This document shows, one piece after another, positions 13,137 through 14,101 of a stretch of 64,000 nucleotides of DNA (positions are counted from its first letter, which is position 1; every line of letters begins with the position of its first letter). Below the pieces are notes generated by a model. That model was not told the origin of the DNA. It did no database searches and worked only from the letters and a program-made list of their open reading frames with translations. This DNA is from Escherichia coli (GTDB taxonomy: Bacteria; Pseudomonadota; Gammaproteobacteria; Enterobacterales; Enterobacteriaceae), in the NCBI RefSeq assembly GCF_029227855.1, contig NZ_CP074356.1. The stretch is one strand, 5' to 3'. The translations under genes were made by a program, and so were the position numbers.

Positions 13137-14101
13137 GTATTAAAAATTATAAATATAGTGATATTAAACGTATTATCAAGATTCATTAGCTATTATATCA
13201 GAGTTGTATTAAATTAAAGTCAGATGAAATTGCATATATAAACGAATTATGGAACTAAAGCATAAAATTTTATTGAGACAATTAATAAACAAGAGTTATA
13301 TAACTGATTGATATTACAATGATTGGATGGGGGTATCAAAAAAGAATCAATAAACAATCATATCAGGAAAAGTTATGTTTTCTTATTCAAGGCCTCTTTA
13401 GAGAGGTCTTACGTAGGCGAAGAATTCTATGTGACAGTACATACAACGAGGGGGCGTTAAAGTGCATTTTTTCGAACATATATAAGAGAAAGTATTTACA
13501 TGGCGTGATATTCAGGTTGTAATAAATCACTTTGGTTACAGTTGCGTGGTACGTGTTTTGTGGTGGATTATCGGCCTCCTGATTATCGTCGTTATATTTG
13601 CTGTCTTAGTGGTCAGGTCTCGTATGCAGGACATGGATGATGATTATTGACATTCCTATAATGATACCAATATAGTTATACCATTACTATAAGCTATGAT
13701 AGAAATTTAACCTTCTTGTTCTAAATCAATTCACATAAACCAAAATGTTACAGATAGCTATGTAAATGAAAAACTATCATCAAAATGGATAGTGTTACGC
13801 ATTTTTAAGAATTCAAACCATGAAGTCTAATATTAACGTAAAATAGGTAATAGTTCTTATTTGATGTTTTTATATTTGATGTGACTGCTTGATTACCTTC
13901 TTCTATAGTAATAAAAAATATGTGAGTAAATAATTATTTTAAGAAGGTTGAATTTGGATTATATGTAAATGGTACGATTTCATCAAAAAATAAATAATCG
14001 AATAAATGTTTAAATATATAAACTTCTCATGGTTATAATAAGCCACAACCAAAAAATAACTTGCAATATCTATTTATACTTTTCATAATTGAGGAGATGT
14101 T
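13137..14101. other. Very AT-rich spacer at the junction between the gsp core and the capsule cassette; probably carries the promoter of the downstream acetyltransferase gene
   Basis: About 1 kb visibly dominated by A/T runs with no long ORF; contains one locally GC-richer patch (13541-13650). Confidence 0.4.

Follow-up and report, generated by a model that had tools for sequence, protein, structure and literature searches.

A 30-codon reading frame at the edge of an Escherichia coli capsule locus and its family of predicted single-helix peptides beside phage tailspike genes

The small frame and its surroundings

The window analysed here is a stretch of 64,000 nucleotides of Escherichia coli DNA (RefSeq contig NZ_CP074356.1), and the subject of this report is a short reading frame at positions 13558–13650 of its plus strand. 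The frame lies in an AT-rich spacer of 965 bp between yghD and the first K-specific capsule gene; the spacer is 100% identical to its counterpart in E. coli strain MRSN346647. On the left, a type II secretion operon runs on the plus strand from gspD through gspL to yghD and ends at 13136; beyond this operon lies a kps capsule locus with the minus-strand order kpsFEDUCS, kpsMT, K-specific genes. With a probability of about 0.55, we regard 13558–13650 (+) as a genuine, unannotated small-protein gene, the capsule-locus member of an undescribed family, that is most likely still coding. The gene and its immediate neighbours are the following:

13558–13650, plus strand: small gene with TTG start, 30 codons and TGA stop (ORF listing, homologue alignment, gene-sized DNA similarity, coding constraint, hydropathy)
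13546–13557, plus strand: in-frame upstream codons GTG GTA CGT GTT (flank comparison; homologue alignments do not extend upstream of residue 17)
12600–13136, plus strand: yghD (GspM family), last gene of the type II secretion operon, left neighbour (RefSeq annotation of the identical locus)
14102–14683, plus strand: acyltransferase, first K-specific capsule gene, right neighbour (ORF listing and annotation of the identical locus)

The original prediction, made from the letters alone, had described a GC-richer patch within the spacer, containing a frame without ATG, with GTG 13546 and TTG 13558 as candidate starts and a weak ribosome-binding site. Inspection of the sequence bears out each of these points. 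From GTG 13546 to the TGA at 13648–13650 the frame translates to MVRVLWWIIGLLIIVVIFAVLVVRSRMQDMDDDY, no ATG occurs in it, and the G+C content is 0.43 in 13558–13650 vs. 0.29 in 13137–13557 and 0.24 in 13651–14101; the GC-richer patch corresponds to the small gene. In its full extent the frame comprises 46 codons and opens behind an in-frame TGA (13507–13509). As open reading frames (ORFs) of 20–67 amino acids are frequent in the same spacer, the frame alone proves nothing; it is more than a chance occurrence because homologues exist.

A family of 30-residue peptides

An exhaustive HMMER search with the 46-residue frame against 1.84 billion representative proteins yielded six hits with E-values from 6e-7 to 3e-4, five of them exactly 30 residues long and one of 45 residues, extended through loss of the stop codon. 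All six align to residues 17–46 of the frame, residue 17 being encoded by TTG 13558. Because the homologues align from this codon, the start is fixed at TTG 13558 and not at GTG 13546, wrongly preferred before, and the product therefore has 30 residues, (M)WWIIGLLIIVVIFAVLVVRSRMQDMDDDY. A subsequent profile search extended the set to 30 clusters, of which 28 have lengths of 29–34 residues and one has 45, the great majority being of exactly 30, with the consensus MWWVIGILAVIVLFAALVIRSRLRDMDDDY and E-values among family members of 1e-13 to 1e-15; the cluster names offer nothing beyond "hypothetical protein". The family pattern consists of an N-terminal (M)WW, a hydrophobic helix, RS(R), and D-x-D-D-D-Y followed by the stop. 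The window peptide conforms to it, and W2, W3, L8, D25, D27, D29 and Y30 are invariant in the alignment in which it is included. It starts with 3 N-terminal residues, continues with about 17 hydrophobic ones and a basic RSR motif, and closes with the acidic DMDDDY; the mean Kyte–Doolittle hydropathy is 3.18 over residues 2–19 vs. −2.25 over residues 20–30. The 30 codons from TTG 13558 align without gaps to 26 variants from outside the capsule loci, and the window peptide departs from the family consensus at 9 residues, each time by a conservative exchange.

When nucleotide sequences are compared, 29 phage or chromosomal loci resemble the window over 13555/13559–13650 only, and in the reciprocal search of a phage copy against E. 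coli genomes the capsule-locus copies matched over the gene only. The other family copies have a mean G+C content of 0.50. Since the DNA similarity is gene-sized, the GC-richer patch can be understood as a piece the size of the gene with a composition ordinary for enterobacteria or phages, and the window copy is embedded in the AT-rich DNA of the capsule locus. Of the explanations first offered for the frame, that of an unannotated small membrane protein gains support from this conserved 30-residue, one-helix family with coding constraint (see below). That of a remnant of a disrupted gene finds no support: the cluster lengths are those of a complete short protein, the 45-residue member owes its length to stop loss, no flanking remnant of another gene was found beside the small gene, and no haplotype of the capsule locus has a longer ancestral frame upstream.

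Outside the capsule lineage the start codon is ATG in 25 of 26 variants and ATA in the remaining one (L044), and the printed flanks of these copies mostly contain a Shine–Dalgarno-like sequence (AGGTGA, GAGG or AGGAA). The window copy departs from this family trait, with TTG and TGGTAC. Where the window has TGGTAC as its ribosome-binding region, the remaining capsule-locus haplotypes have TGGTGC, and phage copies have AGGTGA or GGGTGA; over a longer stretch, TTTGCAGGGTGAATGT precedes the ATG of phage copy L028 and GTTGCGTGGTGCGTGTTTTG stands in the capsule loci, the window having changed GGTG to GGTA. By this comparison, the region in front of the capsule copies is recognisably related to that of the phage copies but degraded. 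It is more likely that 13546–13557 is a degenerate ribosome-binding region than a start: GTG 13546 is GGG in haplotype L007, TTG 13558 is invariant across the capsule-locus haplotypes, and a second GTG at 13549, kept in the other haplotypes, is GTA in the window only.

No description of the family was found in the libraries, annotation or literature searched (Pfam, NCBIfam, PHROGs, PADLOC, Rfam). Scans of Pfam (E-values up to 10), NCBIfam, PHROG and PADLOC gave insignificant hydrophobic matches only, with none below E=0.01 for PHROG, and an Rfam scan of 12900–14300 gave only chance matches of snoRNA (small nucleolar RNA) type with E-values above 1. A word-indexed protein search of 5.8 billion sequences with the 46-residue frame returned nothing, the query being too short and divergent for it. 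The same holds for tblastn of the 30-mers against phage and plasmid collections, probably owing to the short query and the low-complexity filter. When phage copies were compared with sequenced phage genomes by blastn, either the neighbouring humD gene or nothing was matched, and a degenerate DNA pattern for the C-terminus had no match in 100,044 species-representative genomes.

Coding constraint

For the analysis of substitutions, 33 distinct nucleotide variants were collected, all 30 codons long, 26 of them from outside the capsule lineage. The proportions of synonymous (pS) and non-synonymous (pN) differences and the ratio of non-synonymous to synonymous substitution rates (dN/dS) in the frame of the small gene are:

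Phage vs. phage: pS 0.45, pN 0.17, dN/dS 0.28
Capsule vs. phage: pS 0.56, pN 0.22, dN/dS 0.25

The other five frames have dN/dS values of 0.55–1.9, with one exception of 0.37. In a neutral simulation, the observed number of differences between the window and each of five independent relatives was placed randomly; equal or fewer amino acid changes without a stop were obtained in at most 0.5% of the trials (P of 0.005 or less), and about 55% of the simulated neutral sequences gained a stop codon. Judged from this substitution pattern, the family is a real protein-coding gene, and the window copy appears to have been under family-like constraint for most of its separate history.

Prophage and chromosomal copies

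Prophage copies are found at or close to the end of the prophage in E. coli assemblies, in prophages of enterotoxigenic E. coli (ETEC) that occupy the lambda attachment site, and in 21 viral contigs of IMG/VR. In these loci the small gene is convergent with a large ORF, the two standing tail to tail with stop codons that overlap or abut; the genes overlap by up to 7 nt or are separated by up to 2 nt. Of ten large ORFs scanned, nine are tailspikes, with three types of anchor (P22 Head_binding, TSP1/Gp66 Tail_spike_N and T7 tail N-terminal), and the scanned tailspike ORFs carry pectate-lyase-like or endosialidase-chaperone domains. On its other side the small gene has no constant neighbour; holins, the host attachment site, or humD or umuDC-like genes under LexA-box control occur there. 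RefSeq leaves the small gene unannotated in both E. coli prophage loci inspected. Promoter scans reported no consensus promoter, and where the small gene overlaps the tailspike gene there is no space for a terminator. A divergent subgroup from IMG/VR (L035–L040 and L044), with the sequence MWLAIGGAAVVVGIAALVFRSAMKDSDDDY, lies 120–210 nt from a convergent ORF of 491 residues without Pfam match.

Comparison of the phage loci reveals mosaicism. In the pairs L018/L019 and L024/L025, the small genes are 99–100% and the tailspike bodies 95–99% identical, and the N-terminal anchors and the upstream DNA are unrelated; the anchor is of P22 Head_binding type in one phage and Tail_spike_N or of another type in the other. 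These pairs are a clear example of receptor-binding-module exchange between phage types. The opposite arrangement is seen in L009/L034, L019/L026 and L018/L045, where the upstream DNA is 95–100% identical, the small gene only 68–76%, and the tailspike bodies are unrelated. In L028/L029, the small gene and upstream DNA are common to both and the tailspikes unrelated, which is the same situation as in the capsule locus. It follows from these mosaic pairs that recombination of the variable module has its boundary at the small gene, which often moves together with the module.

A third context is chromosomal, without phage genes, near sufA: such copies are known from Citrobacter and from a more distant genus, its suf operon sharing 73.6% identity with the E. 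coli one (6001–6093 of L047, Citrobacter sp. UYEF32, and 6001–6093 of L016). In Citrobacter, a perfect TATAAT precedes the ATG of the small gene by 45 nt. The chromosomal copies point to a branch of the family that resides in the host. The tail-to-tail position at a tailspike gene is shared neither by these copies nor by the window copy, and the prophage location expected of a moron, which most family members have, is absent from the window copy in its capsule locus. No phage genes were found around the latter, its neighbours being yghD and K-specific capsule genes, and no tailspike remnant was found beside the capsule-locus copies.

One alternative is a toxin. Type I toxins such as TisB, DinQ, Ibs and Hok are short hydrophobic peptides, often unannotated and sometimes linked to the SOS response, and long structured leaders are typical of them. 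A peptide of this kind would damage the membrane, be curbed by poor translation signals and by antisense RNA from the convergent neighbour, and stabilise the prophage end or the capsule-locus flank. Size and hydrophobicity are indeed like those of TisB, DinQ and Ibs, but the strongly acidic C-terminal tail, conserved across genera, is unlike the known type I toxins. LexA boxes stand within about 120–140 nt of the small gene in some prophages, but they abut the divergent humD or umuDC-like genes and not the small gene. The tail-to-tail overlap with the tailspike gene guarantees antisense RNA in late transcription; a dedicated antisense RNA gene or an Rfam match was not found, nor were repeats or tandem duplicates. 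Finally, the weak start of the capsule copies could reflect selection against expression, but most copies have ordinary translation signals: the phage and chromosomal ones have ATG, mostly a Shine–Dalgarno-like sequence, and short leaders without long structured parts. We therefore hold a type I toxin-like function to be very unlikely.

Two of the prophage loci contain perfect LexA boxes (TACTGTATTTTTATACAGTA), at 7861–7880 of L009 and at about 203–222 of L015, just upstream of the humD- or umuDC-like genes. These genes are oriented divergently to the small gene, from which the box is separated by a stretch with GATC-rich inverted repeats.

Capsule-locus copies within E. coli

The spacer was compared with 5,426 complete E. 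coli genomes by megablast and blastn, and eight loci were aligned. The capsule-locus copy is present in 52 of these genomes, which fall into seven sequence classes of 100%, 91.6%, 90.8%, 90.2%, 89.4%, 88.0% and 82.5% identity, joined to different sets of K-specific genes. The part of the spacer held in common is:

13137–13650, no strand assigned: flank of 514 bp common to capsule loci with different K-specific genes (megablast/blastn, alignment of 8 loci)

In every K-type with different K-specific genes, the similarity sets in where yghD ends and breaks off precisely with the TGA stop codon of the small frame (13650). In two loci the spacer is truncated by IS1 from the yghD side, and the part bearing the frame is still attached to the capsule genes. 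Loss of the frame in homologous loci, which had been named beforehand as grounds for abandoning the prediction, is not observed: the frame is intact in 7 of 7 capsule-locus haplotypes and in 7 metagenome contigs. Variable sites number 13 of 93 in the small gene vs. 120 of 421 in the upstream spacer (Fisher P=0.004). By count from the alignment, no indel falls in the frame vs. about 9–10 events in the 421 nt upstream.

It is known that conserved kps flanks, kpsS and kpsT/kpsM, surround the K-specific genes (PMC13171606). In the window, the capsule locus kpsFEDUCS-kpsMT-K-specific genes at 20373–30228 lies entirely on the minus strand, with kpsM not flanking the locus. This layout, in which kpsM is not at the edge, agrees with the rearrangements of kpsM/kpsT position known for E. 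coli transporter-dependent capsule loci (PMC13171606). The right-hand conserved flank for K-gene exchange is the 514-bp spacer together with yghD, instead of kpsM. The published layout of the group 3 (K96) capsule was also considered; it differs from the locus here and is uninformative.

Two of the capsule loci deserve separate mention. L007 (E. coli ST2747, NZ_CP007394.1, 6274–6753) is a decaying locus with the K-specific genes deleted, kpsD frameshifted, and only 99 nt of kpsT left, at a distance of about 290 nt from the small gene; the small frame is intact, with the replacements G6S and A15T. L008 (NZ_CP137739.1, "plasmid unnamed2", 187 kb) carries the chromosomal genes nupG-speC-yqgA-pheV together with an integrase, IS1 and a kps locus that is complete and includes the small gene. 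This record, labelled as a plasmid, is either an assembly error or a large pheV island that has been excised or mobilised.

The sharp stop of similarity at 13650 between K-types could also be expected of a cis-acting element, in which case the conserved block 13510–13650 would be the 3' end or a stabiliser of the gsp transcript, or a recombination site, and the frame incidental; alternatively the frame could encode a leader peptide. Conservation among the capsule loci does reach about 50 nt upstream of the frame, and the variable sites (6, 2 and 5 at codon positions 1, 2 and 3) are not concentrated at the third position, but across the whole family the substitutions are strongly codon-structured, with synonymous sites near saturation and the peptide kept. 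A predicted consensus structure covers the block; it contains only 2 covarying pairs, with a covariation term of −1.23 kcal/mol, which is not enough to argue for an RNA element, and has no Rfam match. The regulatory leader of the original prediction fares no better, since the DNA downstream is completely different between K-types, with genes that vary in identity and strand and mostly lie on the opposite strand, so that there is nothing constant to regulate. The codon pattern and the variable downstream DNA largely exclude a cis-acting element or leader peptide, for which we see only a very slight chance.

Continued coding or silent relic

A more serious alternative is that a phage-derived frame is no longer translated in the capsule locus and is kept inside a flank that mediates K-gene exchange, with too little time and too few mutations to break a frame of 93 nt. 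Every capsule-locus copy, those of the metagenomes included (a scan for capsule-lineage copies with ATG found 7 contigs, all with TTG), combines TTG with a degenerate Shine–Dalgarno region, at variance with the ATG that prevails elsewhere; TTG is a legitimate though weak start codon, and the state of start and ribosome-binding region fits either low-level expression or a silent relic. The substitutions within the capsule lineage, 5 synonymous and 8 non-synonymous, the latter mostly exchanges among I, V and A, give an omega (dN/dS) of about 0.41 that is not significantly below neutral (P=0.12–0.34), but the long branch between capsule and phage copies is as constrained as those among phages (pN/pS of 0.39 vs. 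0.38). Only 3.4% of single-base changes would create a stop, so that with 13 substitutions an intact frame is expected in about 64% of cases under neutrality; the persistence of the frame even in the decaying L007 locus likewise means that intactness says little. The 36 nt directly upstream are as conserved as the ORF (variable sites 0.139 vs. 0.157), but over the full 421 nt upstream the indels mentioned above find no counterpart in the frame. The acidic tail has lost an aspartate to glycine in L005 and L006, and the departures of the window peptide from the family consensus are all conservative.

Several further points weigh against a functional gene in the window. The spacer is empty in the RefSeq annotation of all 52 carrier genomes, a scan of the plus strand found no consensus promoter upstream of the small gene, and a full-text literature search for the peptide sequence returned unrelated DddY papers only. 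The copies near sufA, without evident link to phage or polysaccharide, weaken the case for a function tied to the tailspike. Taken together, we favour continued coding because of the constraint on the long branch, the purely conservative replacements and the absence of indels, and consider a silent relic to be possible, though doubtful.

Signals in the spacer

Further features of the spacer are:

13495–13523, plus strand: promoter-like pair TTTACA-N17-TGTAAT, 35 nt upstream of the TTG (read from the sequence; invariant in all haplotypes)
13389–13410, plus strand: 9-bp hairpin AAGGCCTCT-TTAG-AGAGGTCTT in the conserved spacer (haplotype alignment, consensus structure)
13647–13676, plus strand: promoter-like TTGACA-N18-TATAGT with 11 of 12 matches, its −35 element overlapping the stop codon of the small gene (promoter scan)

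The pair at 13495–13523 was not reported by the consensus promoter scan and, as it lacks the A at −11, would be a weak promoter at best. Read-through from the secretion operon is a possible source of transcription, because the terminator scan predicts no terminator between yghD and the small gene. The hairpin at 13389–13410 is not a classical terminator since no T-run follows it on either strand. Five haplotypes have G:U at its pair 13392:13407, L007 has A:U and L003 has G:C, and the stem of L006 has a mismatch at another position; the G:U state fits a plus-strand RNA. The promoter-like site at 13647–13676 precedes the acyltransferase gene at 14102 by about 425 nt and may serve it; only its TTGA is common to other K-types. 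A mini-ORF, ATG GCG TGA, occupies 13500–13508, its stop being the in-frame stop that opens the frame of the small gene; it is preceded by AAGAGAAAG in the window and by AAGGGAAAG in the other haplotypes, and is probably fortuitous.

Proposed role and comparison with known peptides

By the positive-inside rule, we infer that the peptide would form a single-pass inner-membrane helix with the N-terminus in the periplasm and the RSR motif and acidic DMDDDY tail in the cytoplasm. The capsule-locus copy would be expressed at a low level owing to its TTG start and weak ribosome-binding site, and its transcription could be due to read-through of the secretion operon or to its own weak promoter.

MgtS, AcrZ, PmrR, KdpF and CydX are peptides of about 30–50 residues with one hydrophobic helix that bind a larger membrane protein, and they are often missed by annotation. 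The peptide described here resembles them in size, in its one hydrophobic helix and in its short charged termini, and by this likeness probably also acts by binding a larger inner-membrane protein. Unlike them, it belongs to a family that is largely phage-borne and mobile and shows no similarity to any curated family. This family, with the pattern MWW-helix-RSRxxDxDDDY, appears to extend across Enterobacterales, most of its members being placed at prophage ends, much like independent "moron" genes.

The small gene may further be viewed as a stretch of similarity that edges a variable polysaccharide-specific cassette, namely the tailspike body in phages and the K-specific capsule genes in E. 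coli. With a conserved gene at the edge of a variable cassette, swaps of the cassette would end at the borders of the gene. In this respect it is like the "linkers" at module boundaries of lambdoid and P22-like phages and like the kps flanks, conserved stretches edging a hypervariable cassette at which similarity starts or stops. It differs from known linkers in that the gene itself is protein-coding, under purifying selection across the family, and is found in two unrelated kinds of locus.

A position opposed to the late genes at the prophage end is a common place of lysogenic-conversion and exclusion genes. In prophages, the peptide might protect the lysogen, either by superinfection exclusion at the inner membrane or a block of genome entry, or by interference with the assembly of the polysaccharide receptor. 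We put this role forward tentatively and by analogy, because of the position beside the tailspike at the prophage end and the precedents of HK97 gp15 and of Iap from Pseudomonas phage D3.

HK97 gp15, of the YebO family, is a small inner-membrane superinfection-exclusion protein encoded by a prophage moron, with chromosomal homologues (PMC3594210). Common to both are the small size, the phage origin, the predicted location in the inner membrane, the status of an extra gene by the tail genes and the homologues on Enterobacteriaceae chromosomes. The peptide is, however, much shorter (30 residues), its gene adjoins specifically the 3' end of the tailspike gene, in opposite orientation, and the Pfam (E-values up to 10) and PHROG scans detected no similarity to HK97 gp15 or YebO. 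D3 Iap, the alpha-polymerase inhibitor peptide of a serotype-converting unit, inhibits the O-antigen polymerase (PMC4815439, PMC3594210). It belongs to a moron directed at the surface polysaccharide that serves as phage receptor, and disturbs a larger membrane machine, Wzy/Wzz (PMC4815439, PMC3594210). Like Iap, compared here by description, the product of the small gene is a very short, predicted membrane peptide of phages. Iap is encoded with wzy-beta and oac, whereas no wzy- or oac-like gene adjoins the small gene in the phage loci examined, and the host lineage differs. An effect of the peptide on O-antigen or capsule is speculative.

A broader and rather improbable reading is that of a portable lysogenic-conversion or immunity peptide that binds the machinery of polysaccharide assembly or export (Wzy/Wzz/Wzx or KpsMT-KpsE). 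If it were true, the receptor of the lysogen for the neighbouring tailspike would be changed or thinned, and capsule loci with rearranged kpsMT would have captured the peptide as a built-in modulator of capsule export. Such a peptide would account for the co-transfer with tailspike bodies, the position at cassette borders and the presence beside K-specific genes.

Implications

Small phage-borne membrane peptides are already known as a kind. New are the family itself, its place at the junction of the tailspike cassette across phage types, and the occurrence of the same gene at the junction of the K-specific cassette. Very small membrane proteins are systematically missed by annotation, and the small gene is one such case. 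It marks the junction of the receptor-binding tailspike, which among phage modules is exchanged most rapidly, and that of the serotype-specific cassette in a class of E. coli capsule loci. The gene is thus a candidate for a lysogen-protection or envelope-modulating peptide and, at the same time, a candidate sequence for swaps of tailspike and K-antigen cassettes, and may in both respects have a bearing on phage host range, on phage therapy against encapsulated E. coli and on capsule typing.

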